64,000 nt of DNA from Enoplolaimus lenunculus (GCA_030248215.1 JASANG010001737.1:186001-250000), one strand, 5' to 3'. Shown: positions 4,228 through 61,600, counted from the stretch's first letter. Notes: a model not told the origin generated them from the sequence alone. Translations and numbers: made by a program.

Positions 4228-4303
<76 letters not shown>

Positions 4304-15721: not shown

Positions 15722-16932
15722 CTAGAGGGTCCATACACAGATGAAGCCAATGTATAGAACAGGGCCGGAACAGTAGCATAGCATATTCCTAAGCCTAAGC
15801 CTAAGTCTAAAAAGCAAAAAACTTAGTCTTTAGCTTATCTTTTAGTCACGTCGGAAAACATTCCGGCCCTGTTCTCGTATACATGGGCCGGAGGAGTGCA
15901 GCACCTCTGTATAAACCAAAATAAACTATTTCCTCCAAACTTGAGAAACTCGGTCAAAGCGCCGGAGCAGACAGGGGCGGGGACCCCCCCAAACTCGCGA
16001 GGGAAGCGAGCGACTAGAGAGTCCATACGCAGATGAAGCCAATGTATAGAACAGGGCCGGAACAGTAGCATAGCATATTCCTAAGCCTAAGCCTAAGTCT
16101 AAAAAGCAAAAAACTTAGTCTTTTTAAAGCTTATCTTTTTTAAAGTACAGTCACGTCGGAAAACATTCCGGCCCTGTTCTCGTATACATGAGCCGGAGGA
16201 GTGCAGCACCTCTGTATTAAAAACCAAAATAAACTATTTCCTCCAAACTTGAGAAACTCGGTCAAAGCGCCGGAGCAGACAGGGGCGGGGACCCCCCAAA
16301 CTCGCGAGGGAAGCGAGCGACTAGAGGGTCCATACGCAGATGAAGCCAATGTATAGAACAGGGCCGGAACAGTAGCATAGCATATTCCTAAGCCTAAGCC
16401 TAAGTCTAAAAAGCAAAAAACTTAGTCTTTTTAAAGCTTATCTTTTTTAAAGTACAGTCACGTCGGAAAACATTCCGGCCCTGTTCTCGTATACATGAGC
16501 CGGAGGAGTGCAGCACCTCTGTATAAAAACCAAAATAAACTATTTCCTCCAAACTTGAGAAACTCGGTCAAAGCACCGGAGCAGACAGGGGCGGGGACCC
16601 CCCCAAACTCGCGAGGGAAGCGAGCGACTAGAGGGTCCATACGCAGATGAAGCCAATGTATAGAACAGGGCCGGAACAGTAGCATAGCATATTCCTAAGC
16701 CTAAGCCTAAGTCTAAAAAGCAAAAAACTTAGTCTTTTTAAAGCTTATCTTTTTTAAAGTACAGTCACGTCGGAAAACATTCGGGCCCGGTTCTCGTATA
16801 CATGGGCCGGAGGAGTGCAGCACCTCTGTATCAAACCAAAATAAAGTATTTCCTCCAAACTTGAGAAACTCGGTCAAAGCTCCGGAGCAGACAGGGGCGG
16901 GGACCCCCCCAAACTCGCGAGGGAAGCGAGCG
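15722..16932. repeat. ~300-bp tandem repeat x 4, each unit containing a ~145-160-bp MITE
   Basis: Units begin ctagag(g/a)gtccata at ~15722, 16015, 16321 and 16628; preceded by a ~71-bp dimer at 15578-15722. Confidence 0.95.
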
Positions 16933-38500: not shown

Positions 38501-41500
38501 TTGATATAAGCAGAACTAAGATTATAAGCCAAAAGTGAAACGATATGTAAACTCTTTCAGTTAAAAATTTGATGATAGAAATTGCTAAAAATAAAAAATC
38601 GGATAGTTTCGTAATTAATTTCTCGTTTTCAACGCTCTGTACACATGTTGTGGAGGATATAAATCATTGTGCCAGGCATTGCAACAGCTTATCGCCAGAT
38701 AATTTGTCGATAAACAACTCTTATTGTAGATTGCAACAAGTCGTTAACCTGACGATAACTCGTCGGTTCCACAATTATAGGCTCATCTTAGGCGGGTCGT
38801 ACAGCTCGAAGTAACGTCGGGCTACGACTTGATGGTCGACGAGTTGTAGATTCGAATCATCCATCTTAAGCATGATAAAAATTTGATAAAAGTAGTCTAT
38901 CAATGTATCATCGTACTTTATCTCCAACTAGTCTAGTTTCCAACTTAAGTTTACACGTTTGTAAACTCTTGAGGCACCGGAAAATAACAAGGAAAATATT
39001 CAACCGCTTCGAAAAAAACGGACTATGGAAACGAATCATGTGGTTAAAGGCAAGACGACCGAATCGTTGAGTACAAACATTCCATTTTGCGCATCCAACA
39101 AGCAAAACTCTGTGAGCGTCGTTTTTAGTTCCGATTTTTCGTTCGCAACACGTGATGTTTATGTTTTATATATGTGTTGTTTGAAATGTATGCGTATGCT
39201 ATACTGGCAAATAAAGCATTTCCTACATATAAAAAGAATAAAATACATGTAATGTACGCATTTGTTATGTACTCTTATTGTTTATTAATAGCAAATTATT
39301 GACGATGCTGCGTTTGAGATCCAGATGGACCGAATTGTGAAGTGCCAACAATCAACGGACGATTTTGGTATGTATAGTTAAAAATTGTAATTTGCATGAA
39401 TGCCCTTTTGATTTTGTCCTCTGTCCAGACTAAATAGTTAGCCATCCATCTGAATATTTGGCCCCCGCCCCGCACCAGATCCGGCATTACTATAACCGGG
39501 CCCCCAAACAAGTGCCAAGGGCACCAATAAAATGTTTTAAACTGTATAACTTCATGATAAGGAAAAAATATTTTTGTTTGCCAAAGTGGCGCCCATAAGA
39601 GTCGAGGTCCACCCAAATGGTGGGTTTGGGGGGGCATCTGCCGGCACTGCCCCTTAAGATATGATTGTACCTGGACATTGTGGCATGTAGATATTCGGCG
39701 ACACCATTCAAAGTTTCCGCCCTAAATATGATTGAATAGCAACCGCGTCAAGTTCTTTCAACAAAAATCTCAACAGAGCATGCCCGCTAAACTTTAATGT
39801 TGCATCTGGAATTTTTAGTGGATTTAAACAGAGCATATTAATAACAAACTTTTTTATGTTTGAATAATTTTTATACGCTTATACAAGGATGGGCGGTCGT
39901 GATCTTGGTTTTGGTGGAATGGAGAGGGGCGAAATCTAGGGACTTGCCATTTTACACCAAATTAAGAATTAGGGTGGGACCCTTTCCTCCTCTAGGTACG
40001 CTCAACAGCAACGTACCTCCATCCATGTTACCTGTGTAAGAAGAAGGTATATAAATTCAATACTGTTTTATGGCCAATTCTACTGAATTCTGTTTTGACA
40101 ACAAGTGTTGCTAAGCTATAGTTTCATAAGTAATGTGTGAAAAGTGTGTGTGAACATTTTTATACGGCCTCCGTTTAACCCTGGAAAATTTAATTTAGCT
40201 ATCACCTTAAACCCTTAAGGTAACACTTGACAATGAAATCTACGAATATTCGCTAATAAAGTGACCGTATTACACATTTTAACTATGGATAAGAGTTTTA
40301 CTGTTTGTTAAATAAAAACCACGCACAGTATATATACGAACTGCGAATCAAGCCGCCGTTAAATTATAGGTCTTCCAAAAGTTACTGTGAACCACAAAAA
40401 AGCAATGAAATCTGTTCCAGGATGGTCAAATTACCTTCAAAACAAAAGGCGCTTAAAAAAACAGGTATTTGTATATCTTTCAACAGTTAATGAATAAGTT
40501 TGCGCTGGCATCACCGCAATTCGACGCCTGTCATCTCGTCGACCTACAATTTATAACCCAAAGGATCGCCGACCCCATATTTCTCCAAATCTACATCCCA
40601 AAACCAATCAGTAGGTGTTAACACCCGTCACCAGACCAGGCAAGTGGTGTCCACTAGATATCGGAGACAAAAGTGTTGGGGTCGGCAACATATCGGGTTA
40701 ATACGAGTTATTGGTTGATGAACTGCTGATGAAGAGTTCTTGTAGATTCATGTGCAGTATAGAACTACACGAACGTTGCAGTACATGATTAAGACTGGTT
40801 TTATGTGTCTCTACGGCAATCGGTTTGAAGAATGTGTTTAATTTGTTTTTTGTTTCGATGGCAAGGCCTTTCTACACACGGCTCTATCATCAAAATTTTG
40901 TACATCCCCGCCGGTATTCGTAGAAATTTTTTGTACACACTTCAGAAAACTGACAGCTTGGATAAAGTGATAGGAACACAAGCAGATAAATCGTCCAAGC
41001 CATCGCCGTATTCTCAGCAGTATGGTCTTGGAGAACATGCTGAACAAAACGATCCTGGAGCGCAAACTGAACGAAATGGTCCTGGAGAGCAAACCGAACA
41101 GAATGGTCCTGGAAAGCAAGCCGAACATAATGGTCCTGGAGAGCAAGCCGAACCTAATGGTCCTGGAGAGCAAGCCGAACATAATGGTCCTGGAGAGCAA
41201 GCCGAACCTAATGGTCCTGGAGAGCAAGCCGAACATAATGGTCCTGGAGAGCAAGCCGAACCTAATGGTCCTGGAGAGCAAGCCGAACATAATGGTCCTG
41301 GAGAGCAAGCCGAACCTAATGGTCCTGGAGAGCAAGCCGAACCTAATGGTCCTGGAGAGCAAGCCGAACCTAATGGTCCTGGAGAGCAAGCCGAACATAA
41401 TGGTCCTGGAGAGCACGCTGAAAAAAACAACCCTGCAGATAAAACTGAGCAGAATGGTTTTGAATGGCAGGCTGAACAGAATGGCTTTTTAGAGCAAGCT

Positions 41501-44500
41501 GAAAACTATGATCCTGGAAAGGAAATTGAACAACATGGTGCTGGATGGCAAACTGAACAGAATTACACTGCGGGTCTCGCTGAACAAAACGATGATGCAG
41601 AGCAAGGAATAGGTAAGGCATTTGGAAACATCTGCTGGTGTAAACTGTAACGTTTTCGGCGAATTACATTTAAACCGATGTCTAATCAATTTCTTGGGAC
41701 TGTAACGTTTTCGGCGAATTACATTTAAACCGATGTCTAATCAATTTCTTGGGACTGTAACGTTTTCGGCGAATTACATTTAAACCGATGTCTAATCAAT
41801 TTCTTGGGACTGTAACGTTTTCGGCGAATAACATTTAAACCGATGTCTAATCAATTTCTTGGGACTGTAACGTTTTCGGCGAATTACATTTAAACCGATG
41901 TCTAATCAATTTCTTGGGACTGTAACGTTTTCGGCGAATTACATTTAAACCGATGTCTAATCAATTTCTTGGGACTGTAACGTTTTCGGCGAATTACATT
42001 TAAACCGATGTCTAATCAATTTCTTGGGACTGTAACGTTTTCGGCGAATTACATTTAAACCGATGTCTAATCAATTTCTTGGGCATTTCTTTGCAACTTT
42101 CACTCACTTTACGTTTGTTATTTTTATCATCTTTTACAAATCCTAGGACGGAATCCCCTCTTTGGATCCGCGACTGCACTCAGCGCTGGTGCCAGGGTGG
42201 AACCGAATCCACGGTTTGACCTAATCCGAATTCATTGCTAATTTGCCGAATCTGGATCCGAACCTGGCATTTTGCAAATTTCCGATATATTGTTAATTTG
42301 TTTCAGAATACCAGCGGAACACCAGCCGAAATAAACTTTAAACATTGATATATTTCGTTCCCGCCCCTAGCTCTGAGATTTGTGACATGAAACAAAAAAT
42401 ATAGATTTAAAGCAAGCTATTAAAATTTGTTTAAAAATCTAAAAAATACTGCCGAACATTGTTGGACTCGGCTTTTGCATTCGGCTTTTTCACAATCGAA
42501 TCCGAGTCCGAACCTCAAATTTTTACCGAATTCGAATCCGAACTTTCATTACCGCCCTGGCTGGTTCCACTTGTCTCGTCGCCAAAAAGAAGGGAATAAA
42601 CGTGCTTGCTATAGATTTGCGAATAACCCTTGTGTGGCTAATATTTAGTCGTAAACTTTTATGATCTAAAGCGCAACATTCTGAAAATAATACGTACAAT
42701 ATATATACGTATACATTAATATGTATTAAACTGAAGCTGGACATTCAGGACCCCGCTGTAGCTCCAATTTTTGAAGGACACACAGCTGTCCGCTGCGGTT
42801 TTGTCATTGAGCAATGATAAGGACATAATAGTGCAAAGCATATTCTCAAGCAAAAGCCTAATCGTGAATATGAAACTATAATTAAACCTTGGCCAGCAGG
42901 ACTACGCCAAAGTAAAAAATCTTAGTTTTAGGCCTATGCCCTCTTGTAATACCGCGGAAAACGACACACCTTGCAATATAGGCCGTAACTAGGAAGACTG
43001 TTGGTAAATGAATATGAAGTTAAATTTTCGAGTTTCATCCAAAGTTTTTTTCTAGATTCCCACAGTGAATTATGCAACGAGCAAAGTGATAGCAACAACA
43101 GCCTTGATAGTATTGACTCTGATAATAAATACGTGCCAAATGTTGACTGTTTGCAAGGTTAGAACCAAAACATATATACTTCTTGAGGTCATAAAATAAT
43201 TTCGATTTGTTTTAAATGTCAAATCGCCCCTGAACCGTCGGGAAGAGCATTTGCCCACACAACTCCAAAAATCAAAAGTTCTAGTTTTTATTGTACACAC
43301 TTTGATTCCTCATGTTAAAATTTAGGTTCAGACTGAGGGTTGGCTTAAGAACCCACCCGTAAGCAGCTCAACATGCTAGACGCGCATGTTATTATTTTGC
43401 AAGCCAGCCCCCATCAGAAATTTTTGGATCTGCCTCTGCATGAACGGATTTTTATACAAATTTTAGATTCAGGCAACAAACACTTGGAAGCGAGAAGCGA
43501 AACAAACGGTGACATCTTCCGCATTGGATGTTGTAACGATAGCCCAGAAAGAGCAATACTTAATTCAACACAAACAACTGGTTTTTTGCTTCATTCAAGT
43601 CCAGTAAACGATTCAGACAGCTTTCAGACTGGTACGTACATATATTTTATTAAAAACCTACATTTTTTGGTTCTGGTTTTGTGTTGCATATAAATTCTAA
43701 GATAATCCGGCAGAGTCTACAACTCATTAAACAGTATGCATAGAAGCAACAGATAAAGACAGTTTCTTCAAGAGTTTTCAACGACTATGAAGTTAAACCT
43801 TTCGTAAGAATGGGTAAATTCAGGGTGTGGAACGAAAAATTGAAAGCATTTACTCGGAAAAATATTTGAAGGTAGCACGTGGTCGCAAAGGTGTAAAGTG
43901 CGCATTCAATTTATGACATTGCATTGAAAAGCGGTCAATATTCTTTTCTACACAGCTAGATCGTCGAAGTTCAGCTTTTTGACAGAATTTCTACGGGACA
44001 AATTAAAATATACCAGAACTTGTTAATTCATTTTTTAATTGGGATAGAAAATATGAACAGAATAGATTATATAGCGATAGCAATTTCTTATATAAAATCT
44101 AGCGTATAGGTAACTTATGTATTATTCTTTTAAGTGCGCAATGGAACTGCTGTACGAGCGGATCCCATCCACAGTGCAACCCAATCGACGAATCTTTCTG
44201 ATGACAATCGGGTAAGCAGACGGAGCATTCGAATTTTCGTCCAAAACTGCAAAGATTTAAGGCAACCACATTTTGATTATTCTTTGTTGAAAACAGATCC
44301 TGAAAATTTGTTTGTGTTTCAACACGCTGATATTCGGGTCGGAAGAGGTGTAAAGACAAAAACCAATATACCATCAGGTTCCGTTGTATTACAGTACGCA
44401 GGACAGCTTTTGTCAATGAAGAAAGGCAGGGAGAAAGAACTCGAATACGCTAGTCAACAAAAAGGAAATTATATATTTTATTTCAAAAATCCCATCACAC

Positions 44501-44727
44501 AGTCAACTTGGTGCGTCGATGCAACTTATGATGATGGAAGGCTTGGAAGGCTTGTTAACCATTCCAAGTCTTCTCGAAACATTGAACCGATTATTATAGT
44601 GTACAAAAACATTCCGAGGATAGTTTTTCGGGCAATAAGGGACATTTCGCCAAACGAGGAGTTATTATATGCATATGGAGAACAACGTCCCCATGTTCTA
44701 AAAGATTTTCCTTGGTTGAAAAACTAA
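32572..44727 (+). CDS. 14-exon gene (~910 aa) with a C-terminal SETD8/KMT5A/PR-Set7-like SET domain
   Basis: Hand-built exons 32572-32576 (ATG GC), 33156-33189, 33267-33309, 33783-33970, 34615-34976, 35600-35780, 36112-36159, 37270-37407, 38974-39111, 39292-39367, 40370-40464, 40946-41612, 43467-43631, 44135-44727. All introns are GT-AG, all phases are compatible, total 2733 nt = 910 aa + TAA. The 5' exons are less certain than the last three. Confidence 0.75.
32631..36712. repeat. Inverted repeat pair 32631-32750 / 36588-36712 with a 75-bp perfect core
   Basis: atgaaagctc...ttgaagcgca (32631-32705) is the exact reverse complement of 36638-36712; about 45 bp more matches imperfectly. Confidence 0.93.
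41075..41417 (+). repeat. Coding 27-bp minisatellite (GPGEQAE[H/P]N) x ~12
   Basis: aatggtcctggagagcaagccgaac(a/c)t repeated within exon 12 of the SET gene, with degenerate copies on both sides. Confidence 0.95.
41644..42083. repeat. 55-bp tandem repeat x 8 (intronic)
   Basis: actgtaacgttttcggcgaattacatttaaaccgatgtctaatcaatttcttggg, near-perfect copies (one substitution seen). Confidence 0.97.
42193..42559. mobile_element. hAT-like MITE
   Basis: cagggtgg...ccgccctg ends with an 8-bp TSD-like pair gctggtgc/gctggttc and internal ccgaa/ttcgg subterminal repeats. Confidence 0.8.
44135..44727 (+). CDS. Terminal exon encoding a SETD8-like histone-lysine N-methyltransferase SET domain
   Basis: Motifs GRGV, YAGQL, YIFYF, WCVDAT, GRLGRLVNHS, EELLYAYG and terminal FPWLKN parallel SETD8 (GRGV, YCVDAT, RLGRLINHS, EELLYDYG, HPWLKH). 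Divergent paralog-like, so no symbol is given. Confidence 0.93.
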
Positions 44728-45064: not shown

Positions 45065-45673
45065 GATGGTTGTTCAAAACAACTTGACATCTTAAAAACG
45101 AATCTATCGCAAACATTGTCAGTGGAACCACCTACCTCACATGAATATAAAACGATCGAACAGGAGGTTTTAGCCGGCGCAGCCCTTAGTGATGTGCCAG
45201 TTGACATGGTTCAATACTTAATTTCTACGCATCTTGGGCTGAAGTTACAATCATCATTATATTGCCAGCGTTACTTTAAACCGGTGGAAGGTGACCATAT
45301 CCAAATTTTGCACACTGGCCAATATCACTGGGTAACTTCAGCTCGAATAGATGGCCATATATACATAACAGACAGCTTGTACATGGACCAACTTACAGAC
45401 AAACTGATTTGCCAGCTATGCGAACTGTACAGAACCAATCCTTACAAGCCGTGTTCATTGGAAGTCGAACGACTGTGCGTTCAGAGGCAAACAAATTTCG
45501 TTGACTGTGGCGTTTTCGCTCTTGCGAACGGGGTCTCTCTTGCGCTAGGGCATGATCCTTGTCGAGTAAAATACCATATGCCTAGTATGCGAAAACATCT
45601 GTGCAAAATAATTAGACATTGGAAGTTGGAGATGTTTCCATGTACTGTTGTCGAAGAGCATAGCAGTCCTTGA
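45065..45673 (+). CDS. Ulp1/SENP-like (peptidase C48, clan CE) cysteine protease domain
   Basis: QILHTGQYHWVT (His ~45326), YITDSL (Asp ~45371) and VQRQTNFVDCGVFALA (oxyanion Gln, Cys ~45506) give the His-Asp-Cys order of clan CE. Frame is open from the acceptor tttag|GAT at 45065; first in-frame ATG at 45206; TGA at 45671-45673. Confidence 0.85.
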   Translation, partial: DGCSKQLDILKTNLSQTLSVEPPTSHEYKTIEQEVLAGAALSDVPVDMVQYLISTHLGLKLQSSLYCQRYFKPVEGDHIQILHTGQYHWVTSARIDGHIYITDSLYMDQLTDKLICQLCELYRTNPYKPCSLEVERLCVQRQTNFVDCGVFALANGVSLALGHDPCRVKYHMPSMRKHLCKIIRHWKLEMFPCTVVEEHSSP

Positions 45674-48214
45674 TATAACAGAAAACGAATCATAGGAACA
45701 ATTGAACATCTTTTTGATCCTGTGGGCAGTTTAGTTCTCCTATGCATATATGTTGTGTGGGGATGTAACGAAACGCGCAAAATTATTCTGAAGAGATAAA
45801 CAGCTTTTGCACACTTTATTTCCACATTTAAGACTAAATTCAGCCTTCGAGAACTTTTTCTCCGCCTAAGCCTAAGTCTAAGTGTGCGCATGAGACTGAA
45901 CCTAATCCTAGGCGTAAGCCTGGATGTGAGAGTGTACAAAAGCCAACACAAGTTTTGAATTGGTGCTAAATAATCCGGTACTCGAGACATAAATTTTTTC
46001 TCTTACAACATTCACATGTATGTAAATATCTGTATCTGTGCCGAAACCAAGGAAATAGATTCGATTTTATCTTTTACTGCATTTTTATTAATTGTTTTAT
46101 TAAATATATCTTTATTTTGTCTTGCCATATACCTGCTGTCGCAGAAATTTCACTATGGGTTTGCAAAATTTTGCAAAATGCATATTGCCATTTTTGTAGC
46201 CATATTAACGATAGACGCAACAATCTATTGAGCAGTATTTTAAGCGACCAGTTTTAAATATTATCTGCTCTAGATGCCTTATATACACTTTGTATTGCGG
46301 CCGAAGTTTGTTTTCTTGATTCTTTTTGTAGTTTTGATTTTACGAATTTTTCACTCGCTTTCTTTGTTACATTGTGTGTGCATAAAAATAAAAGCCCACC
46401 ACGCGTCTCACCTCTTTGTGCGTTTCAAATTGCACGGGGCCACATGCAATTGAATAAAGTCTATAAACGGCTTAAGGACAAATTTTATTACAATCGCTCG
46501 TGAACTAAAAGCTATCGGTAGGATTAGCCAGTCCCTATCGGCATATTTTATGGTTGCGCGTATGTGCATTTTTATAGCGCATTGAATGTGAATGCTATCA
46601 ACGTTAAAATTGTACGTGTTCAGGTTTATGTATTTCTATTTCGGTTAGTGTATGTCGAATATAATTTGAAATTTATAAAAAGAGTGTGTGTTGTTGTCTA
46701 CACATAAAAAATACTGATTGATGTATGAAAACACTGAGCGATTATTAATACGTGCGCATAAAAAAAATTGAAAAAAGTAGCGCTAAAAAATTTGTGCGTA
46801 TAAAAAATGACTGCAAAACCAAACGAAATTTTTTAACAACTGTGTTGTGTTCTAGTCAACGACGCTCGCAGCCAGCTCAACAGGAGGTGAATTTTAAAGA
46901 TTACACATATAGAAACAGTGCAAGTGTTTGGGAACTTTCTATATGACTTTGCTTAAGTGTGGTTTGGTTCCCCGACTACGTACAAATCGCTTAAAAAACA
47001 AGATTGTTCGTAGTGATGTTTTGTTCCTTATTTACAGTGCTGGGTGACTAAAATTATGACCCATGCACTTAGTGGGCAAACAATTTTAGGCCAAACTCAG
47101 AGTTAAAGTTTAAGCGTTCTAGAAGAGGTATGCTGTTGAATTCAAGACAAACCGGAAGCGGGTATACAAAACGTCTGGGGGCAGGAGGATACCAAATTTT
47201 TATGCGGATTGTCTGAAGATTTCTGCAGTATTTGAACCAAAGCGTAGATTTTTACGCTCATTTTCAATATATAGGTCGTTTTTATGCTTAAAATTGCACC
47301 TTTTATAGTTGGGCGCTGTGTTGTTTGCTAGGCTTTAGGACTAAGTGAGCAACATGGTTTACAGGTTTTGCTAGACAGCTTGACACGAATGTTGGCCCAT
47401 GTTACTATATAGGGGCGTTTAAGTTTCTGGAGGGTCTACAAAAGAGTAGGTTTAGATTCTAGATATATATTTTTTGCTTAGGCTTACGAATACGCTAATT
47501 CTTACGCCACTTTAAAGTAACATTGGCCCAAATGTTCCAAAGCCGAAGTGCCCTTCGACCTGCCAGTGGTTTGGACTAGTTCATTGTTTTCAGGCGTAGA
47601 TCTGAATTTTAAATTTGTGTCACAAGCTGCTGACGTGTTTGTAAATGCAGTGACGAGGTTGAAAATGTAGCAGTTTTGCATTTCATGGGCACTATTTCTG
47701 TAGCAGTTTGGAGATACGCAAATTTAGAAATTGTCAGTTTGAAAACCTATTGTTTTTTGTTTGGTATATTTATAAAAATAGGTGCTATACACAATTGAGA
47801 AGGCCCATACTTCCATGTGTAGAACAAGGCCGGATCGGTTTCCAGCGGGGCTGTAATAGAGTCAGTTTAAGGTTTAGGCTAGCTTTTTTGCTCAAGCTGA
47901 GACTTAGGTTTAGAAATAGGCTCATTCTTACGCTTAGGCCTAGTCGTAGCCTTAGGCTTAGAAATATGCTTTTACTACTCTCCCCACCGTGTTCTATACA
48001 TAGGCCACTTGTGCCATTGAGAACATATAAGGTCCCTAAATTCGTTTGACTCAAGGTTCACGTTTTCTGGGCCTACTTCAGATATATTTGAACTTGTTCT
48101 GTGCAATACTTTTTCAGTTTCATTTTGGAACTAAAATACACCATTTGGAGCCGTTTTCGCTGCTGCTGCGCAAAACACACGCGCTGCCGCAGGTTTTTTT
48201 TCGTCAACGCTGCA

Positions 48215-51200
48215 ATGTACAGTGCTTCTGCGCAAGATTCATATGCACCGACGGCCAACCATGATTCCAATACGAACTTTTTTTGCTCGAAAGACGGCGA
48301 TTCAGTAATTGCTGCTGTATGCGTACGAGATATTCAAACAAATCCAGGGCCAGTTTGTGGTCGTTTGTCACACGCTGAAGAACAACAAAACCCTGTAACT
48401 AATTGCGATTGCTTGTCGAAACCTGAAGAAAGCCAACTTCTTTTAAATGAGTCAATATGCGATTGCGAAAAAAAAATTCAGAATTTGCTGCTTCTCTGTT
48501 CGAAACTGCGAAAGTATGTTCATTCGTTTTTTATATTTTTGGCCTCTGTATACTTTCTTTTTCCACAGAAGACGAGGCTTACGCTTAAGCCAGCTTAGAC
48601 TTCATAGGTACGACTTAACCAGATGTTGACGAGAAAGAGGACGTAAGCCTTTTGTGAAACCTAAACATAAACGTGAGCCTGAGAATAAATCTACGGGGGA
48701 GCGTATATAGTTATAGAACCGAATTTTGAATATTGTGGTATTTTGAATAGTGCGTATACTCGATAAAAATGTTGTAACAGCTAAGATGTGAATAAAGATT
48801 TAGATCTTTTATCAGTATTCTTTGAAATGTTAAAGGATTCAGGCTCAGTATCAGCAGCCTGCCGTGATTTGGAAGTGAAAAAAGTGTCTGTACTAATCTC
48901 TATAATTTTGGGTAAACTTTTGCACTGTCGAATATCGCTGTTTTGGAGGAAGAAACTACGATTGTCCAAAACTATTTATACGTTGTATTTAGAAAGCGGT
49001 GATGACTTGCCAGCAACACGGTGGGAACACTAGACCAAAATTAGCATTCCTGAACGGCTCATTTTCGATACATCAAAATTAGGCAGCGACTTAAAGTATA
49101 TTAGTTCTCTCACTCAAATATGAACAGGAATAGCAGCATAGAGCTGTGTATCGATATAAAAAGTTACTGAACAAAGCGTCTAAAACACAGCGCGGAATGT
49201 TTTCGAAATATATTGGTCATAGTCGTCATATCCGGATTCTTCTTCGGTATTCAACTTTATGGACCCAAACTGACAAATAATTTTTAGAAGCAATAGCTTG
49301 AAACATAAAAATATATGACGTGTTCGGAAAATATTGCAAGCTCACTTAACGACATCTTAATTGAAAGAACTTGCGATAACTCTTATCTGTATTTTAGCTA
49401 GACATTGATTTTTGATCGCAGCGGCAGCCAAAGACAGAGCTCATACTGCATTCAGTTTATTGTTTTAGTTTGGAAATACTAGTACGTACGCCTCTAATGT
49501 AATGTTTGGCTCCAATGTTTAAGGTATGGCACTCAACAATTACAGACACATGTACCTGCACCTGTTGACGATTTCACAGAATTACCGGGATGGCACGTTT
49601 CGAAAATCACACAGCGCATGGAGTACTTTCTGTTCAATGGAATCCGTCGGTTTTTCAAATCACCTTCAAACATCTTGTACGATTCAATTAATTGTGGTTT
49701 TTTCATTTGGCAAAACCCCGGCGAGACTATCAAATCAGTATGGAATACTTGTCGCCCGGAAGTTTATTTTCGTAATAGAGATGCTTTCCAGTTTTTCACA
49801 AACAATTTACCAATTGCAATTTTTCATGAGAAGAATTTGAACAGTTACTTCGTCACATCATTGAACGATCCATACTTAGCTGTAGCTGCAGTGAAGGCCA
49901 AGGTTCAACTTGCAGAAGAGTTGGCCATCACAAAGAGGTTTTCGCATCTTACAGCTGAAAAGGTTGGAAGTTTGTGCGCTCTTTTCTCTCAACGACAACG
50001 ACGAGCGGTTAAGTATGCCGTTATGGAGACTCAGGGAAATTGCATGTCTGTGCGAATGTTGAAACAAATTGGCATATACCATCCAAAAGAAATTAGAGCA
50101 ACTGTTTTAGCAGATATGCAGAAGATTGAAAAACTTAAAGAGCAGTTCAATAAAGTTATGCTGAAATATTCTGAAGAATCCAAATCTAACACAAACGCTT
50201 TAACCAGATTTATAGATGACGAAATTGAATACCTTGGTAACGGAGGGATAGCGTCTTGTCTTGACAAACACCAAAACGAATTTACCAATAAAAATGCTGC
50301 AGGAGTGGAACTGTTGATATCAATACTTAAACCTCTCGCGAATATACGGAACCGAATAAACAAACTAATCGGTAATGATATTTTGTCGCTTCAAATCATT
50401 TTTTTCAAAATCGCATGCTACGCAACGCAAAACAATGTCACATTATCGAACCGAATGATAGAGTACATTAAAGAATTACAATATCCACAGAAGTTGCTGC
50501 GTCAAATTTTGAATAAGACTGTCACTGATAACGACTTGCAAGTGATCGTTAGCTCTATGATGACAGATGCCATTCAAACGGCAGAAGACAAAATTCAGTT
50601 ACTTATACGTGAGCTTGATCCATATGCAGCGAGACACATTCAGGTAATTGCTAAGATTACGAATGCGTTGAAAAGCATGCAGAATTCAAGTAACAGTCAG
50701 ATTGCAGATGCACTGGGACAAAACGATAGATTGGGATTACGAGTTCTATTGTTTCAAATTTTTAAATATGCGTCGCGCAACTGCATCAAGATACCACGGC
50801 AAATCAAAGAGTTTGCCGTTTGCCTTGGGTATCCAGAGCCCGTCTTGCGATGCATGTTAGATGGTTCGAAGCTACCAACCGCTCATATCAGCTCAATAAG
50901 CTCAGATTCTGAAATATCAAAAGCTGCGGAATCTTTGAAACAGGTAACCATTAGATATATAAAGCGCCAGAAAATATTATTGTATAATATGCTACGCGAA
51001 CAAAAATATGTGCGTCCCAATAGAGAGCCCGCCTACTTGAAAAAGTTTCCGAACGTGGGTCTTGCTATTGAAAGTTTTGTGCGGCGAAATAATGTAGGTG
51101 CAGACCGTTGGCGGCAATGTGGTTCTCTAGTTGCCTACTATAGAAGGGGAACGAAGTTAAGGCGCACGCATAAAGTTACTTTCAAAACTATTCAAAAACA

Positions 51201-54200
51201 TCTTAATAAAATATATTATCCACACAAAATATCTACGTCCACAATTTTTTACCTTTGTTGCCAACGCCATAAGTTAAAAAAACTGGTCCATCGCCATTAT
51301 AATGAAATCGATCTGCGATTCAAACGAAGTCGTCGTGGATTTACTGTTAAACACTCTGTTGACAAGTACCTTAGCGACGCATTTTATCGACTTAAAGATT
51401 TTATTGAATTGAAATGTAGTGTTGCAATAACATGTAACTCTGACGATGCCGCAGCGATCAGGACTGATACAGTGATTACACACTGTCAATTTCCGGTTCT
51501 CTCCCTGGAAGGTGAAGAAAAATTACGTACTCGCGTTGACTATCAAAATGCGTATCCATCTGGCATTCAGGTTTCTTCTTACTTCTTTCCTGAAACAAGT
51601 AAACATCCTATGAAAGTCGCTGGCGTGGTTAAACCAAAAGGTCTTTTTGGAAAGAGTGCAGCCCAGCACTACACTGATTATCTGAACGTCGAGGCTTGGG
51701 CAATTACAAAGCCGGACAAATTTTTTGTTTGGTTGTATCGCCGCGACGGCGGTCCTAATGAGGGCCCTGACAAAAAAGAGGTGAAATTGTTTGCGGCGCT
51801 ACTTCATCTTAACAAATCACAACTAATGACTGTTGTTACATCACGGTATGCAGGCGGTTCATACAAAAATGATGTGGAACGTGTTAATGGTTGTTTAAAA
51901 CAAGCAGAGACTTTGTTTCACTGCCCATCAACATCTGTTGGTAAAAACGACCTCTGGCAAAGCAAACCAGGCGCTCAGCTGCTAAAAGAAAATTGCGAGA
52001 TGGCTGGTAAAATCTATATGAGCCACGTCGATGGCGTGAAGTACAAAAACACGCCAATTAAATTGATGTTGGGTACAAATACCGAGTTCACGCGCGACAT
52101 TGTTTCGGCTTTTCTTGGCAAAAATCAGCATCAACGAAAGCTTCAACAAAAGAAACACCCTAGTTTATGGAAGCAGTTAGTACTCGCGCAGAACATTCAA
52201 AGAGCGCATGAAATGCCTTCCAGCGATGCGAAGTATTTTTATGGTTTACAACTGTGCCTTGGCAAGTTCGATTGCGGGCATCCGCTTTGTTACAAATATT
52301 CTACATCAAATACTTACAAGAACATGATGTAAGATTTTGTTGTTTTTACGGTAGCAAACAAAACACCACAAGGTAGAAGTGGGATATGAATTTCGCCAGT
52401 GATGATACAATCACACATTTAATTTCGTGCCTGCTTGAAACAGCTCTTTCAAACTGTATCTTAAATTAGGACCTTGGATAAGCTCTTCGTCGATGTTTCA
52501 AGCATTTTCATATATATGCTAATTTTCAACTGGATTTTATGATAAAGGTTTAGTTTCCTTCACTGAAAACTTTGTAAACTAGTTTAAACCAGTGACACGT
52601 CATGTCAACTCTGGATTCGCCGCTAATTGCCAGCTCAGCTGATATATAGGATATATTTCGTTTAGAAACACTTATAAATGTGTTTTCCATTTTTTTAGAG
52701 ATAACTTGCTCTGGTATCCGGGTGGTCCGCATATTTTCAAGATAACATATCCAGTTCGAGATCCATCACGAGAATGGGGTATCCATTGCGAAGACTGTGA
52801 CGGTCCGTGTCGCGGACACTATTTGGCAGGTATATTTTGCGTTTAATAAGAGATGGGATGAAGTGCGGGTAAACGCGAAAATATTCAGAGCGCGCATGAA
52901 AAATTGTGATTTTCAGCTCACCGAGATTTCGGGCAGCGATCGATAGACAAAGTACTTATAACTATAGCACAGAGTACATTGTTTTACTTGTAGAATAATG
53001 GTTTGTTTTTACCATTGCTATTACGGTTATCCTAACGCTAATTGGTTTCGGTTTTGTGTATGCGCAAATAATCAAATCTGATCAGTATAGTTATTAGCGG
53101 TTTAGCCTGGCATAAAATTCTTGTTCATAAAACTAGCATGTTAGCCTACACACAAATGTCTTTTATTTCAAACATTAATATTATCCTTAAACAGTTCAGA
53201 AATTCGTTTCTTAAACGGTTAAAACATAAATGTCTTATATTCAAGAAATTGCTATTGACAATTGAAAAAACACATGTTTCTTATTTGGAAATAGTTGCCT
53301 TTTGCTCAAGAATTAATTTTTTGATTTTTATGTATTTAAAAAGGTTACTCCATCATTCTTCAATTTATTATACTTCGGGTTGATCAGCCCGCCCCCAACC
53401 TAAGTTTACGTATTAGGCGTATCTTAGGTTGTAAAATTAAGTTGGTTTAGCTTTAGCCCCCATTGTTTCATATTACAGAAATATTTGTCTTATATTACAG
53501 AAATGTTTGTCTCAATCGTTCGTGAAACAAAGTCTTAAATCTCAGACTTTTAAGTCTAAAAATTTCAGACCCATATTTCTGAAAGTTTAAGAAAAATAAG
53601 TCTGGAATTCATGACATGTATGTCTGGAGGCTAGTGCCTAGACCAATGAGTAATTTGCCTGAATACCAGATTGGCCAATTTACTTTTGTTTTCAACAATT
53701 TCTGTTTAATTCAAATATAATAGTAATTTGTTTCATTTGAAAATATGTTTAGAAGAACAAGCAATTGAAGCTGTTATGAAAGATTCGTCGCTTCAAATCA
53801 GTATTTATCCGTCTAAACGAATAGCTCAACACGTTAAGCTTGCCGTTGTTGATCGCATGGACCCTTATGTTGGAGCTGAAGCTCTGGCTCGGTCATGTAT
53901 GCTTACACTGGCGGAAACGAAAAATGAAATAGAAAGACTGCTCAATTTAAAAATTAGTTGTGAGTTTATGTTACGCAAAGCGTTTTGGGTCGGAATGTAT
54001 TAAAATTTAAACGTTTAGATAATTAAATATGTTTCCACATGCTCAGCCCATCGTAAACTAATAAATTTTCGACAAGGGTCACAAAAGTAAAACAGAACCA
54101 CGCGAGCTTTCGAGCGAGAACTAACGGCATATGGTCCTAAAGCATATTGAAAACTTTTTTGTTTTGTAACAGTTCGGCGAAGCATCTGATCTCTGGTTCC

Positions 54201-55543
54201 TTTTAGATCTGTTCTACTTTAGCGTGCTGCAGCCCGTCCGGACATATATGCAAATCATAGTATGTATATATTAGATCTTTTTTGCATTTATACGTATTCG
54301 ATCTCGCCGCAAAACATAAAAATCAAAAAGTGCGTTTTAAAAAATAGATGCATAGGTATTAGTATTTTTGGTATTGCACTAAAATTCTAGTTTTGATTCA
54401 GCATCCAAATAGTGGAAACCAGATTTTTATTTTGATTCTAAAAAGTAAAACTTAAACTTTTAAGCTGAAAACCGGCAAAAACTTCGCAAAATGCAAATAC
54501 CAAGCCGATATTGCAAGTCTCACAGGCGACGCCAAAATAAAGAGTACGACGGCGATTCAGTATTCTCAGACACAGAATGCACTGATAGCAATACGGAAGA
54601 AAGCGATAGCAACTCTGACTCTTCGTTGTCAACAACAAAAAAGATGTACCAGCAACCGTTGCCCGATGGTAACGGCAATAGCAAAACACCTTCGAGCAAG
54701 GTTGTAACCACAGTTCGAAGTCGACAAATCAAAAGGAGAGGTAGGAAACGTTTAGCAGATGACAATAATGAATTAAGTTCCCATTGTGGTGTCTCTAAAA
54801 ATCCAGCGATTGCGTCAATTTCTGAAACTCATGGTGATATGCGTAATCATGAGTGTTCTATAAACAATACTTCCCAAAGTGAAATAGAGCTGTTTTGTCA
54901 GCCTTGTCAGCAAGTGTTGTCTACAACTGGCAGTGTTGATCACAGCCTTTACAGCAGCAACGCGAATTATAACGCCGTTATTGCATCGATTTCGAAAACA
55001 CTTGCTGATTTGCGCAATTATCAGTATTCCGTTAAAAACACCAACGCTTCTGAGAGCGAAACTGAACTTTTCTGTCAACACAACCAGGAAGGATTGCCTA
55101 TTGGTAGCGCAGAAAACTCTAAGATTAGCAGCACTAACGTTACCCATAACGCCGCTATTGCATCTATTTCAAAAACACTTGCTGATTTGCGTAATTATCA
55201 ATGTTTTGTTAACAACACCAACGCTTCAGAGAGTGAAACTGAACTTTTTTGTCAACAAAGCCAGGAAGAATTGCCCATTAGTAGCATAGATAATTCTAGC
55301 AGCACTAACGTTACCTATAACGCCGCTATTGCATCTATTTCAAAAACGCTTGCGGATTTGCGTAATTATCATTATTCCGCTAAAAACACCAACGCTTCGG
55401 AGAGTGAAACTGAACTTTTTTGTCAACAAAGCCAGGAAGAATTGCCCATTAGTAGCGTAGATAATTCTAGCAGCACTAACGTTACCTATAACGCCGCTAT
55501 TGCATCTATTTCAAAAACGCTTGCGGATTTGCGTAATTATTAA
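48215..55543 (+). CDS. Intron-containing Zator/ISAzo13-like DDE transposase (~1500 aa)
   Basis: Exons 48215-48513 (tentative), 49524-52328, 52699-52829, 53753-53959, 54465-55543, all GT-AG and in phase. Catalytic-like motifs SDDAA (D ~51442-51447), RRDGGPNEGP (D 51745) and GGSYKNDVER (E 51877), with 43 residues between the second D and E. C-terminal WYPGGP...CEDCDGPCRGHY Cys/His motif. Confidence 0.78.
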
Positions 55544-55940
55544 TATTCTGCTAACAACACCAACGCTTCGGAGAGTGAAACTGAATTTATCTTTCAACAA
55601 AGCCAGGAAGAATTGCCTATTGGATGCGCTGATAACTCTAAGATTGGCGATACCAACGTTAATTATAACGCCGCTATTGCAACTATTTCAAAAACACTTG
55701 CTGATTCGTGTAATTATCAATATTCTGTTAACAACGCTTCGGAGAGTGAAACTGAACTTTTCTGTCAACACAGTCAGGAAGAATTGCCCATTGCAAGCGT
55801 TGATAACTCTAATATTGGCAAGGTCAACGTTAACAAAGTCACTTTTGCATCTATTTCAGAAAGACTTGCTGATCTGCGTAATTATCATTCCCTTATTAAT
55901 AACAACAGCAACGCTTCGGAAGGCGAAACAGAACTTTTCT
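54950..55940 (+). repeat. Coding tandem repeat, ~177-183 bp (~59-61 aa) x ~5, plus degenerate flanking copies
   Basis: Repeated NAAIASISKTLADLRNY...NASESETELFCQQSQEELPI units. Confidence 0.92.
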
Positions 55941-56065
55941 TGCCTAATGGAAGCGTTAACCAGCTTAATAGCGACAATAACGCTAACTCCGCTACCGGAT
56001 CTGTTTCAAAAACATTGGGGGACTTGCGTAAACTCGAGTATTCTGAAAGTGAAACAGAATTATAA
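55544..56065 (+). pseudogene. In-frame continuation of the transposase repeat exon beyond a premature TAA
   Basis: Same frame as ORF 54491. The TAA at 55541 sits where sibling repeat units have CAG/CAA/CAT after ..LRNY, and the repeats continue to TAA at 56063-56065. Confidence 0.7.
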
Positions 56066-56467
56066 ATAGTATTGGCCTGTATAAACCAATTAATTCTTAA
56101 TTTTCAGCTTCTGTTAGCTCTAGCAGCGCATCCATAAATCTCTGCTGGGATGGCCTGTGCTCTGAGTAAAGTACATACACGCAGTATTGATAAACGTAAA
56201 CGTGAATGCTAAACGCAAATTTTTAGCGAAAAACACAAAATTTGTTGTAGATGTAGAGAACTCTGATTCCTGGGTCTTCTGTATAGGTACGACTTTACTT
56301 CAACCTATTTATAATTTCTTTAAAAAATAAATTTTTTAGAAAAATTTTAGAAAAATATTTAAGACCTGGGGCAATGATTTTGTGCGGTAATTTGTAAAAT
56401 CTTCAGGTGTATACGCGAAACTCGGGAGCGAGCTGTTTTGTTGGGAATCGAATGATTTTTTCAAACA

Positions 56468-57087
56468 TTCCTGGGATTTTCTATACTTTACGGTCTGGTT
56501 TCTCCGTGGGTAGATTAATTGTTGTACAACATTGCAATATTGTTTTTTTCACAGTTTATATTTATACTTTGACAGTTTGTATTTTCCACTTCAGTGCTGT
56601 TATCTTTTTAAACTGTGTGTGTACGGACCCGGATCCACTGAAAATAGTCAGAAATCTCTCTACCAAAAGCGTTATTTTATTAATATTTGGTTTTTCACAT
56701 ATAAACTTTGGTAAAGTTTGTTTTTTTTCGCTACTGCTGAATAAAAATCGGTATCTTTTTTGCTGAGAAACAAATGATTTTGTGCATACATTTCTGGAAT
56801 TTTCTATACTTTACGGTCTGATTTCTCCGTGGGCAGATAATTGTCGTACAACATCGCAATATTGTTTTTCACAGTTTATATTTTATACTTTGGCAGTTTG
56901 TAATTTCCACTTCAGTGCTGGTATCTTTTTTTAAACTGAGTGTGTACGGACCCGGATCCACTGAAAATGGTCAGAAATATGTCTACCAAAAGCGTTAAAT
57001 TTAAAATTTGGTTTTTCACAGTTAAAATATATAAACTTTGAAAGTTTATGTTTTTCGCTACTGCTGAATAAAACTCGGTATCTTTTA
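56468..57087. repeat. ~310-bp diverged direct repeat x 2 downstream of the transposase
   Basis: ttttctatactttacggtctg...ctactgctgaataaaa..cggtatctttt occurs twice. Confidence 0.85.
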
Positions 57088-57159: not shown

Positions 57160-57697
57160 AACTCGATTTGCAGCGACCAAAGAAAACAGAGCTATATCTC
57201 AGCGGGATTATAGGAATAAAAAAACAGATAAAGAATCGCAGCCTCGAAAAACGGCAGGCCACCGCATCAAGAAGAAACCCAAACCGAAAAAAAAGAGGCC
57301 CGACAAGGCCCCAAAAAAAAACGCAGACCACCCCAAGCAAACCGCAAACGAAGACGAACAACCACAACAAAAAGCCGGCGCAAGCCAAAGCCAAAAAAGC
57401 GCAACGAAACACCCGAACCGCAACAGGCCCACGCAAACAACAAAAACAACACGGCCAGGCCCACCAAAAAACAACGCACACGCCCACCCCAAAAAGCCAA
57501 CCCAACAACCACAACAGCACACAGCGAGCGCAAAAAAAACAAAACACCACAAAAGAAGCCAACACAACAAAAACAAAAAAAAAATAAAAAACAACCAAAC
57601 AAACAAAACAAAAAACAAAAAACAAAACAACAAAACAAAAAAAAAAACAAAAAAAAAAAACACACCACAAACACAAAAAACACAACCCACCCCAAAC
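57160..57697. other. A/C-rich low-complexity tract, probable sequencing/assembly artefact
   Basis: Aperiodic A/C runs with almost no T; produces spurious ORFs in several frames. Confidence 0.6.
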
Positions 57698-57899
57698 GTC
57701 TTTACAAAAAGTTTGGTATAACTACGAAACGAGGTGTGTTTAGGGTTTTGTTTTCAAGTTGTTTTTTCACTACCAAAGCGTTCGACAGTAAAATTTGTAA
57801 TGTGGGCTTCTGAAATGGACTGACTGTGTGCTTAGGGTTGCGTAAATTGTTTTCGGCGCACTGCAATTTCTTTTGGCCTGCTTTCGACTTGTAGTAAAA

Positions 57900-58630
57900 G
57901 TGGATCATGTAAAAAAGTTCCGGGGCAGAACATTTTACATTTTTCTGTGGGACTGGAATAGACTGGTATGCATTCGGCTGTTATATGTAGCGGAACATTT
58001 TTTGTGGGACTGGAATAAAGTTGTATGCTTTCGACATATAAAAAGTGGACCAAAAAAGATCACGGGCGGAACATTGTTCTGTGGGACAGGAATAAAGTGG
58101 TATGCTTTCGACATATAAAAAGTGGACCAAAAAAGATCAGGGGCTGAACATTTTTCTGTGGGACAGGAATAAAGTTGTATGCTTTCGACATATAAAAAGT
58201 GGACCAAAAAAGATCACGGGCGGAACATTGTTCTGTGGGACAGGAATAAAGTGGTATGCTTTCGACATATAAAAAGTGTACCAAAAAAGATCATGGGCGG
58301 AACATTTTTCTGTGGGACAGGAATAAAGTTGTATGCTTTCGACATATAAAAAGTGGACCAAAAAAGATCACGGGCGGAACATTGTTCTGTGGGACAGGAA
58401 TAAAGTGGTATGCATTCGACTTATAAAAAGTGTACCAAAAAAGATCATGGGCGGAACATTTTTCTGTCGGACAGGAATAAAGTGGTATGCATTCGACTTA
58501 TAAAAAGTGTACCAAAAAAGATCACGGGCGGAACATTGTTCTGTGGGACAGGAATAAAGTGGTATGCTTTCGACATATAAAAAGTGGACCAAAAAAGATC
58601 AGGGGCTGAACATTTTTATGTGAGACTGCA
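57900..58630. repeat. 77-bp tandem repeat x ~9 with alternating variants
   Basis: tgtgggacaggaataaagt..cgacatataaaaagtggaccaaaaaagatc..gggcggaacatt units, with ttgttct and tttttct variants alternating. Confidence 0.93.
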
Positions 58631-61600
58631 ATACATTAAGCTTAAGCTTTAGACAAATTGTTTGCTTTGGCTTAGGCTTAGGCCTAGGTATGAGCTCATT
58701 TTTAGGTTTAGGCTTAGGCTTAGAAGTAAGCTTAAGAATATGCTTATGCTACTTTTCCGCCCATCTTCCATACATTGACCGTAAAGGTTACTATTTATAG
58801 CTGTGCCCTAAGCAAGGGTATTCTTGTCACGTTTTTATCTTGACAATATTTACGCCCCTCAACTCTATTCAACATCAGACCATTAGCCAGCCCGTAACCA
58901 GCTCACTTTGCTTTTGGGGCTAAGCAATATTTCAGGAGGTGCATATATACAAGTGTTTTCGTTGACTTACTTACAAGAAAGGTTGAAAATTTTCTAGCGA
59001 GGCCAAAATTTTTTCAGAGGGGCATAAGTCACCCTTGCTACCCCCCTTGCCTACGGTCCGAGTCTAACCATTTAACGTGGCTCATTGACGTACGGAATTT
59101 GCGTAAGTTAGAAATGGGGGCCATAACTGTTCGAGAAGGTACACAAAATTTTTCTAAGGCGCTAGCTCACTACTATTTCTTCCTTCGTATTAAAATTTTG
59201 AACTGACGGCAGCCCAGCATGCTCAGCAACGAGGGGTTCCGAAAATTTTATAAGGAACGTTTTCCATAGGCTACTAAAACGTTTCTGAGAGATGCGACAA
59301 GCTCCCGTTGTTTTCCATGGCGTACGGGCACAATATTTACATCGTGACCACTGATAGGCAAAAATGTTTTACAACCAGGCCCTATTCTAGGTGTATGCTC
59401 TCATTTTTGGACACACACTAGCGTTAAAGTCTTTAATACTAATGCACACGACACAGGGCAATCGATCACGCACGCTGAATAAATACGCTCTTTTAATATT
59501 TACGCTTGTTATATTTATTAAGCCAACGCGTTAGCTTGGCCCTACAACACCAACGCCGCAAATATGGGTGAACGGGGCGGTGGAAGGCGTCGCCTACGCT
59601 GGCGGATATGTTTGCCGTCGCTGGCTAAAAAATTTATCGACAACATTAAACCAATAATAAGTTGTATAGGGTTTATCGCCCCCTCCGTAAATTTTTCTAC
59701 CCTTATTACTGACAATCTTTGGTTGCCGGCCTGCATAGCAAGATCAAATGCTGTTTTAGCTGAGCACATTCCTATAGTCAATATCTAGCGCACAAGAATT
59801 GGCCACATAAAAGTTGTCAGGGGGGGGGTTGCTGTGCGTAAAGTAACTTGGAAAATAGGCAAACCCAGCTGCTGTATAGGATAATTTTCGAAAACCGACA
59901 TCAAGCGAAACAACCTAATCTTTAATCTGGTATCATCTTTAGTAAAAATCCCATCCCAACCGTGTCGCCCCGTTGGTCCAACCATGCTGTTGGCCTGAGT
60001 TAGGCGAACAGTTGCTTTTCGCTGCACCGCTAGCGAGCAGCTTTAGAATTGCACAAGACGGAGAGAAAAATATATAGTGGAAATGCTAGAAACATTTTTT
60101 CAGTTTTGGTGTAGAATAAAAGCGTTTGCGTCTACGTTTATTGCGCTTTTTCAGGTTTAGTTCGTTTTTAGGCTTGATTTGATCTGTAGTAGGTAACTGG
60201 TCTATTTTGATTGGAATTGAGCAGTTTGGATTTTGACACTAAACGGTGTGATTGATAGCAAGCTTATAACTTTGGATATCTCTATGGTTCCCGGACGCAT
60301 TTGAGGTGGAGTGGGGACGTAACACAATTAGAGGTATATTATGTTTATCAAAACCAGCTTTGTTTATAGTTAAGTAAAGTTTCTACCCAAGTAGTCATGG
60401 GTTGGGGGGGTCAGATGTCAGCGCGCTCTTTGGGGTTACTGTTCAAGGCTTTACAGACACGGGTATCAGTTTTCAATGGAAGAAGCCCACCGCTCGATAA
60501 TTTTATAGAACATAATCCCCTTTTTTCAAAATGCTGGCTACGCCAATGTTTCTGACTTGTCATTTTTATCAAAAACTTCACATTGAAGCATTAATAACAG
60601 CCATACGTTTCCCCAACGTGTAGTTTCTGCCTGTCTCTTGAACCTGAGACAAATTATGAGCGAACCCCAGTTTTCGCGGGTCTATAACAACGCAGGCTTA
60701 AGCTTTAGACAATTATTGCTTAAATTTAAGCGTATGCTTAGACGTAGTTATTTGCTTACTTATACACTGATGCTTTAGACTTTGTGCTTACGTTTAGGAG
60801 TATTCTCATATAACACTGTTACGCCCCTCAAAGTAACATTGGCCAAACACGCGATGCCGAGCGGCAGTGGGTGAGTATAGCGCAACTCTTGGAATTAAAT
60901 TTAACTGGACCTTATATGCTTCAAAAAATCTTTTCATCGCATCCCTAGTGTCGATATCATATCCCCTTGTACCGTCCGCCGCTGGCTATGCTCCAGCAGA
61001 AAATATTGAAAATACGTATATTTAATCACGGCATGGCAGTCAGTAACATTTTTTAGCAACAATTTCAAATTTCAAATTCGTTGCTCTTCTATACACTGAT
61101 TCGCTTTGTTGACACACGTCTGACAGACCGGCAGTAAAGTTTAAGGATGATAATTGCAATTAACTGCAAACTTGGAGTCAAGCCATATTTGCGTTTTGTT
61201 TTGTTTTGACGGTGTAAATTAGTGATTGTGTGTTGCGTGTTTGTTTGGATTTTGCTTTGGTGCGAACAATAACGCAATTTAATAAATAAACCAAAAACTT
61301 GAGCTTTTGTTACGACCACTGGCGGATTCAAAGGAGACCACCCGCACCCACATATTACCTTAGCCCTCCAATAGGAATCAAAGCTAAAAATTAGTGCGAA
61401 TATGTAGTATTAAAATTGCGCTTGGGTTATAAGCTCGCTTCGCTCGCGGTTCAACTGAAGTAGATTCCCGATAAATATAAGTCGTTTTATGACCGCTGGC
61501 GGATTCAACGGGGGCCGCCCGCGCCGTAGCTCTCCATCAAAGCTCAATATTTGTGCTAACATTTAGTATTAAAATTGTGTTTGACTTTTCGCTCGCGAAC

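Follow-up and report, generated by a model that had tools for sequence, protein, structure and literature searches.

What kind of gene lies at positions 48215 to 55543 of a 64,000-nt stretch of the Enoplolaimus lenunculus assembly (GCA_030248215.1, JASANG010001737.1:186001-250000; this whole stretch is called the window, and positions are counted from its first nucleotide), and how is the long transposase-like protein that it appears to encode related to the Zator superfamily? An initial annotation had proposed a spliced, very long transposase of Zator/ISAzo13 type. The reading favoured here, at a probability of roughly 60%, is that of a gene with four exons whose predicted product is a DDE cut-and-paste transposase; it would be a stranded, fast-evolved member of a lineage sister to Zator. 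The terms stranded and fast-evolved are used because of its long branch, its reduced number of conserved columns, the absence of detected terminal inverted repeats (TIRs) and a contig depth like that of its flanks.

Exon structure of the window gene

The gene is made up of four predicted exons with GT-AG introns on the plus strand (49618-55543), which when joined give a single frame of 1375 amino acids (aa) whose sole stop codon is the terminal one. The following features were assigned:

48215-48513, plus strand: candidate 5' exon with ATG at 48215 and donor GTATGT, an in-frame splice being possible only
49618-52328, plus strand: main exon (exon 1), ATG at 49618, aa 1-904; the frame is open from 49498
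52329-52698, plus strand: intron 1, 370 nt, GT..AG
52699-52829, plus strand: exon 2, the WxxGGP..P.P.DP..CxxC..C.GH portion of a Cys/His-rich domain
52830-53752, plus strand: intron 2, 923 nt, GT..AG, containing high-copy repeats
53753-53959, plus strand: exon 3, a three-helix region, weakly homeodomain-like
53960-54464, plus strand: intron 3, 505 nt, GT..AG
54465-55543, plus strand: exon 4, with the end of a basic helix, an acidic linker and 57-aa repeats; TAA stop at 55541
54800-56065, plus strand: tandem array of 8 units of ~171 bp, with the frame open past the stop to 56065

The joined product matched 45 of the 46 metagenome loci that hold relatives (see below) at E<=1e-3, the best match sharing ~30% identity over aa ~413-1050, and at 39 loci a single alignment crossed junction 1, compared with 33 loci for junction 2 and 19 for junction 3. 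In many relatives, the entire spliced stretch lies within one uninterrupted open frame. The score on a profile of the family's C-terminal part rose from 28 bits to 76, 102 and 104 as exons 2, 3 and 4 were added, with exon 3 contributing 26 bits, and of all six-frame window segments, exon 2 was the one that this profile matched best (E 1.2e-13). On account of these junction-crossing alignments and gains in score, junctions 1 and 2 of the predicted chain are regarded as firm and junction 3 as likely; the latter has the weakest support of the three, since exon 4 raised the score only from 102 to 104 bits. The exon coordinates, the donor at 52329 and the in-frame joins of the initial annotation thus proved correct throughout, with relatives aligning across every junction. 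Of its start at 48215 and its length of ~1500 aa, an in-frame splice proved possible, as joining the candidate 5' exon to 49524 gives 1506 aa (one of five AG sites tried), whereas a homology search found no match between this exon and the upstream frames of relatives.

Contigs of the source sample match this stretch without any difference. Across 52847-53860, over the high-copy repeats of intron 2, contig depth is in the thousands. The stop at 55541 is one base away from the Gln/His codon of other repeat units: at this position a Gln or His codon is found in six of the other units of the ~171-bp array, while one further unit differs. An 82-aa frame at 48785-49033, which includes a stretch resembling a helix-turn-helix and has plausible splice sites at 48816-48911, is a possible further exon and has no Pfam match.

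Catalytic core and predicted fold

The protein has the following regions upstream of the Cys/His-rich domain:

49726-50157, plus strand: N-terminal region, aa 37-180, homologous to the start of the relatives' second open reading frame (ORF2)
50296-50862, plus strand: tandem ~90-aa unit in two copies, aa ~227-415 (self-match 28% identity, E 5e-10)
51028-51291, plus strand: predicted helical, helix-turn-helix-like DNA-binding region before the catalytic core, model residues 59-146
51331-52059, plus strand: predicted RNase H-like DDE domain, with D609/D610 at 51442-51447, D710 at 51745-51747 and E754 at 51877-51879

The motifs SDD (608-610), DGGPNEGP (710-717) and GGSYKNDVER (746-755) are all present, D710 and E754 being 43 aa apart and D609/D610 lying 100 and 99 residues ahead of D710. 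Among relatives with a residue at the respective column, D609/D610 are kept in 16 of 16 and D710 and E754 in 21 of 21. An AlphaFold2 model of aa 413-904, built from a 25-row alignment (mean pLDDT 67.5, falling to ~50 near D609/D610), showed an RNase H-like core in the order beta1-3, alpha, beta4, alpha, beta5, alpha. The acids lie at the end of beta1, at the end of beta4 and at the start of the next helix, similar to the arrangement given in an extract of PMC5718144 for the DDE transposase core (D at beta1, D at beta4 and E on the next helix). When the model was searched against 48,161 chains, the best match was Mos1 (Z 9.7, rmsd 3.6, 167 residues aligned), followed by Metnase (Z 9.3), IstA (9.2), RSV integrase (8.9) and Sleeping Beauty (8.8); the top 21 rows consisted of transposases or integrases only, at moderate Z values. 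Both the intact D-D(43)-E triad and, in the model, the RNase H-like fold, which the initial annotation had expected, were therefore recovered. Model residues 59-146 fall within the ranges aligned to the Mos1 paired-end complex and to IstA. Pfam, NCBIfam and PDB sequence searches with the catalytic core gave no match, word-based protein searches gave no result for either the core or exon 2, and no relatives were found in viral contigs.

Outside the core, aa 37-180 match the N-terminal region of relatives (family profile, E 7.6e-8). The duplicated ~90-aa unit is unmatched in relatives, and an ESM Atlas search with aa 215-420 gave no usable match. Downstream of the core follow the Cys/His-rich domain, encoded by the end of exon 1 and exon 2, and the three-helix region of exon 3. 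For the latter, five of 21 relatives matched the Pfam Homeodomain model, with E 0.015 at best and thus short of the cut-off, 8 of 14 weak PDB matches were homeodomain-like, and the helices are present in a confident model of one relative.

Relationship to Zator and other transposases

A D(43)E spacing is a feature of Zator, a superfamily that was reportedly defined by Bao et al. in 2009. A metagenome locus (L010) with a motif which we take to be Zator's was the single seed of a reference set of 120 listed proteins (P0001-P0120), presumed Zator-like from their motifs; 78 of these were long, and 17 non-redundant representatives were used. The spacing is 43 residues in the window protein and in 67 of the 78. 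In an hhalign comparison, the profile of the window gene's family matched the Zator-like profile with 98.2% probability (E 4e-14) over 427 columns at 17% identity, and the family profile scored all 17 representatives at 16-50 bits. The window protein itself scored 412 bits on the family profile versus 9 on the Zator-like profile. A quick unrooted tree with no outgroup, from which 5 of the 22 family rows were omitted as too short, split 17 family rows from 17 Zator-like rows with an SH-aLRT support of 100. These comparisons place the window gene in a clade sister to the Zator-like proteins, not inside the Zator-like clade. The proposed kinship to Zator was accordingly borne out by the 427-column match, and its standing as a separate subgroup by the split and the low identity. 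The double label Zator/ISAzo13 holds for its Zator half; a link to ISAzo13 was not shown directly, as no Pfam or NCBIfam match was found.

The lineage shares with Zator the D..D(43)E core, the collinear match, TWA-type 3-bp flanks in relatives and the lack of a Pfam family. It differs in the spacing between the first two acids (100 here versus 110-118 in Zator), in its motif (DGx(A/G)xDEGP versus DGGPDENP) and in the presence of an ORF1 with a frameshift-type junction and of a PHD finger in relatives. The relatives' ends are also unlike those of Zator, starting with 5'-TGC and spanning 50-70 bp, whereas Zator ends start with 5'-GG and its TIRs measure about 25-34 bp. At one Zator-like locus (L049), GGGG ends with ATA flanks were observed. 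For Zator-1 of Branchiostoma (amphioxus), TAA or TTA duplications and a 33-bp TIR are given in an extract of PMC12905397, and part of PMC5751038 states that Zator has no Pfam family.

ISAzo13/TP36, the prokaryotic counterpart of Zator according to an extract of PMC5718144, is connected to the lineage solely by way of Zator. The window protein matched neither PF07592 nor NCBIfam models, PF07592 had no match among 25 aligned members, a Zator-like fragment gave none either, and a tblastn search of plasmids for this link returned nothing useful. The best structural matches (Z 8.8-9.7) are to the Tc1/mariner group (Mos1 4mdb/3hos, Metnase 3k9j, Sleeping Beauty 5cr4), which likewise has a helical domain followed by an RNase H-like core. 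Identity to these is only 6-13%, however; the triad is D43E here versus D34D/E, the window protein is much longer, and the lineage has a putative 3-bp target duplication where Tc1/mariner elements have TA.

Relatives as transposable elements

Relatives were sought with a degenerate pattern of two catalytic motifs at fixed spacing, which is unique in the window, and 46 metagenome loci were obtained. Four complete, TIR-bounded elements of 5.4-6.9 kb were found (L002, L011, L015 and L052). The ends of relatives are 50-70 bp imperfect inverted repeats starting with 5'-TGC(A/G)C, and TWA stands outside all 10 listed ends. Both 3-bp flanks are identical in three of the four complete elements; those of L015 differ, and no empty site was seen. 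L011 and L023 share a common element at 96-98% identity with differing flanks at the intact end. The TIR-bounded structures, the identical 3-bp flanks and the one element in differing flanks mark the relatives as mobile elements.

An NCD2-like ORF1 lies upstream of the transposase ORF in relatives, and a C-terminal PHD finger was found in 5 of 25 members and, as a separate downstream frame, in L005. The two frames sum to 1234-1333 aa (seven loci summed), before any further exon, and ~1400-1500 aa is a normal length in the TGC-ended lineage. The initial annotation had singled out a length far above that of a typical transposase, a distinction that is lost on comparison with these relatives; the extra length of the window protein consists of the duplicated ~90-aa unit and the 57-aa repeat array. 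A small frame near the 5' end of elements (L011 13456-13848, L024 5754-6176, L052 7335-7697) is probably a first exon upstream of ORF1; the two of these tested had no Pfam match.

Prokaryotic members were considered and rejected: the six matches in genome contigs comprised two family members, one Zator-like protein and three chance hits. Two family members (L047 and L052) lie on animal-looking DNA, with microsatellites and sparse frames, in bins of metagenome-assembled genomes. These contigs and that of L049 were in bins filed as bacterial or archaeal and are likely mis-binned host DNA. L038 and L040 are divergent members that have a low-complexity tail and are flanked on either side by short tandem repeats; they may belong to a non-animal branch.

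A candidate -1 frameshift between ORF1 and ORF2

Limiting transposase synthesis by frameshifting is a well-studied form of control in bacterial insertion sequences (IS). ORF2 overlaps ORF1 in the -1 frame in 17 of the 19 relatives with ORF1 and an ORF2 start, the other two being broken copies. After near-copies (L009, L014, L023, L026, L046) had been dropped, 14 distinct junctions were kept. All 14 have NNU UUU in the ORF1 frame near the ORF1 stop, 13 of them within 0-5 codons of it, where the chance occurrence per six codons is 2.8% (18 in 3802 ORF1 codons). The heptamers are G GAU UUU (6), U UUU UUA (4), A AAU UUU (2), G GGU UUU (1) and A CAU UUU (1). The following 60 nt fold with z<=-2 at 8 of the 14 junctions versus 3 of 98 flanking control windows, and hairpin stems mostly begin 6-9 nt downstream. 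An extract of PMC5009743 describes G_GAU_UUU beside a stop as a tested viral site, that of pea enation mosaic virus, and the fusion of orfA and orfB by frameshifting as the IS3 pattern. A cassette for programmed -1 frameshifting combines an in-register slippery heptamer, a -1 overlap and a structure 5-9 nt downstream, and the junctions of relatives fit this description, albeit with a strong hairpin at only 8 of the 14. Judged from these sequence features, the relatives probably make their transposase by an IS3-like programmed -1 frameshift.

The candidate -1 junctions are those of L002, L003, L007, L008, L011, L012, L015, L020, L024, L039, L041, L042, L045 and L052. At the last of these, found later, UUU UAA is followed at +7 by a hairpin of -26.4 kcal/mol, although the heptamer is non-canonical and the frame broken.

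An unlikely, though not negligible, alternative is that the junction is a splice acceptor, with an intron in the coding tail of ORF1, or that the two frames are separately translated genes, so that no frameshift takes place. The TTTT..AG at the junction does resemble an acceptor, and the evidence weighing against a frameshift includes a nearby AG in one common phase at 9 of the 14 junctions. Furthermore, RNAalifold found no consensus hairpin on an automatic alignment of the 14 junctions, a strong hairpin is missing in six of them, and the junctions are related by descent and not independent. Against an acceptor, an AG of that phase is missing at five junctions, one of which has no AG at all within 30 nt, and a shared donor column exists in at most 5 of the 14 ORF1s. 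The U-run always keeps the register NNU UUU, and hairpins follow at 8 of the 14 junctions as opposed to 3 of 98 control windows. The first ATG of ORF2 is unconserved, falling anywhere from codon 2 to 96, and the junction analysis as a whole points to one fused product rather than two genes.

State of the window copy and competing explanations

None of these accessory features was detected in the window copy. Neither the ORF1 profile nor that of the relatives' first exon had a match in the window, a Pfam scan of it found no PHD finger, and no TIR pair was found between 36-49.6 kb and 54.5-64 kb. Thirteen candidate slip sites in the window were examined and rejected, none having a z below -0.5 or a hairpin. 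The protein retains the core motifs of the TGC-ended lineage (GADxWR, DD, DGxxxEGP, NxVExxNG, CxHxxC, WxxGGP and GHY), but only 78 of 116 near-invariant columns, compared with 89-100% in 20 of 21 relatives, and its branch in the quick tree is 2.47 long against a median of 0.34.

Several points weigh against reading the gene as a stranded but genuine transposase of this lineage. Its place in the quick, outgroup-free tree is unsure, and on a branch this divergent, element ends that are short or decayed could have escaped detection. Next to the triad, conserved residues are replaced (R608S, D714N, H719K and W726A), which makes the catalytic activity of the predicted enzyme uncertain, and the splicing of the gene is read from homology. 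Lastly, contig depth is no copy number, and the comparison with related contigs covers 40 of 180 differences. In favour of the reading, contigs identical to the window copy have a depth of 23-25, like that of the flanks (15-19), and the differences inside the ORF that separate it from contigs ~80% alike are synonymous third positions in all eight cases listed. These ~80%-alike contigs are of higher depth and span both catalytic motifs, and they suggest a host-specific subfamily under selection that shares derived residues.

That the gene has instead been domesticated, and now acts in the host as a DNA-binding protein or nuclease, appears improbable. Domestication would account for the missing element ends, the flank-like depth, the long branch and the absence of ORF1 and PHD finger, as well as for three introns, one with high-copy repeats, in a gene whose frame is yet open. 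The higher-depth paralogous contigs, on the other hand, keep the derived residues (with synonymous differences at N607 and S608) as a transposon subfamily would, exon 4 carries a premature stop, and domesticated transposase genes usually evolve slowly in their core. It is least likely of all that the copy is a recently dead pseudogene without function: the same stop, the substitutions beside the triad and the unfound ends fit such a copy, but a 904-codon frame and three in-frame exons remain open, and the stop sits in the repeat tail, beyond all conserved domains.

Between these two in doubtfulness stands the idea of a giant, still bounded element, whose transposase the window gene would be and which would also carry two upstream genes:

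44134-44727, plus strand: SET-domain frame (Pfam E 5.9e-18), with possible further exons at 43000-43640
45065-45673, plus strand: Ulp1-like protease frame (Pfam E 0.0023)

Both are on the strand of the window gene, at a distance of 4-5 kb upstream of it. They are at flank-like depth, however; no bounding repeats were found in 36-64 kb, and the complete relatives measure only 5.4-6.9 kb.

Proposed mechanism and wider context

In the favoured explanation, that of a four-exon transposase gene from a Zator sister lineage, the enzyme would bind the 5'-TGC terminal repeats through its helical domain, and a two-metal D..D(43)E site would cut the DNA, with insertion at TWA and a 3-bp duplication. Relatives would produce the complete enzyme solely through -1 slippage of ribosomes at the ORF1 end, in the manner of bacterial IS3. 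This would hold transposase levels low, with ORF1 serving as a regulator, and the relatives' PHD finger might read chromatin. The window branch would have dropped the frameshift control and would express its catalytic frame from a spliced mRNA. On balance, we lean towards a widespread eukaryotic sister lineage of Zator with an IS3-like -1 frameshift, whose window branch lost ORF1 together with the frameshift, acquired three introns and may be nearing domestication.

Bacterial IS3, IS1, IS5 and IS630 resemble the relatives in that an upstream ORF overlaps the catalytic ORF in the -1 frame, the fusion being the transposase (described in part of PMC5009743; the counterpart in relatives is putative). 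The relatives differ in their eukaryotic host, a product of ~1300 or more aa, virus-type heptamers and a PHD finger, and the window copy in having no frameshift signal. The only eukaryotic transposase-linked frameshift case in the available extract of PMC5009743 is that of ciliate Oxytricha elements. If the conserved -1 signal is genuine, it would extend bacterial-type control to animal cut-and-paste elements, given the animal-looking contigs, provide natural frameshift cassettes suited to simple assays, and account for the splitting of these proteins by gene callers. The lineage may be overlooked or misfiled in repeat libraries, because it has no Pfam model and its ends are unlike those of Zator. 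As a spliced and highly divergent member, the window copy would illustrate how the control module of such an element can be lost. No account of the TGC-ended lineage or of Zator frameshifting was found in the literature searches or in extracts of the comparison literature (PMC7386202, PMC12905397, bioRxiv 2021.09.26.461848, PMC5751038, PMC11071193, PMC4455052, PMC8533490, PMC5718144 and PMC5009743); the lineage may already be filed in Bao 2009, Yuan and Wessler 2011 or Repbase.

Other features of the window

A 4.1-kb segment (32631-36712) is flanked by an inverted repeat, perfect over 75 nt and with a further 47 nt at 85%, and has no clear target duplication. It contains exon-like frames (34561-34980 and 35430-35813) with no Pfam match at E<=0.01, and CTAGTCAAT near its ends resembles the end of L015. 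A resemblance of the N-terminal repeat of the window protein to the frames at 34.5-35.8 kb was unsupported on comparison.

The region 57250-57700 is A/C-rich, T-poor and open in most frames, and has the look of an artefact of sequencing or assembly; a comparable A-run is located at 4202-4320. Tandem arrays occupy 40829-41650, 41644-42083, 57990-58633 and 15844-16933, their units measuring 27 bp (in an open frame, GPGEQAEPN-like), 55, 77 and 307 bp. A very high-copy, GCTTAG-rich dispersed repeat occurs at 47400-47960 and in about ten other places, with contig depths up to about 100,000. Local duplications were observed at 56433-57086 (about 330 bp, 86%) and between 23611 and 26158 and between 27201 and 28952 (at least 300 bp each, 99%).

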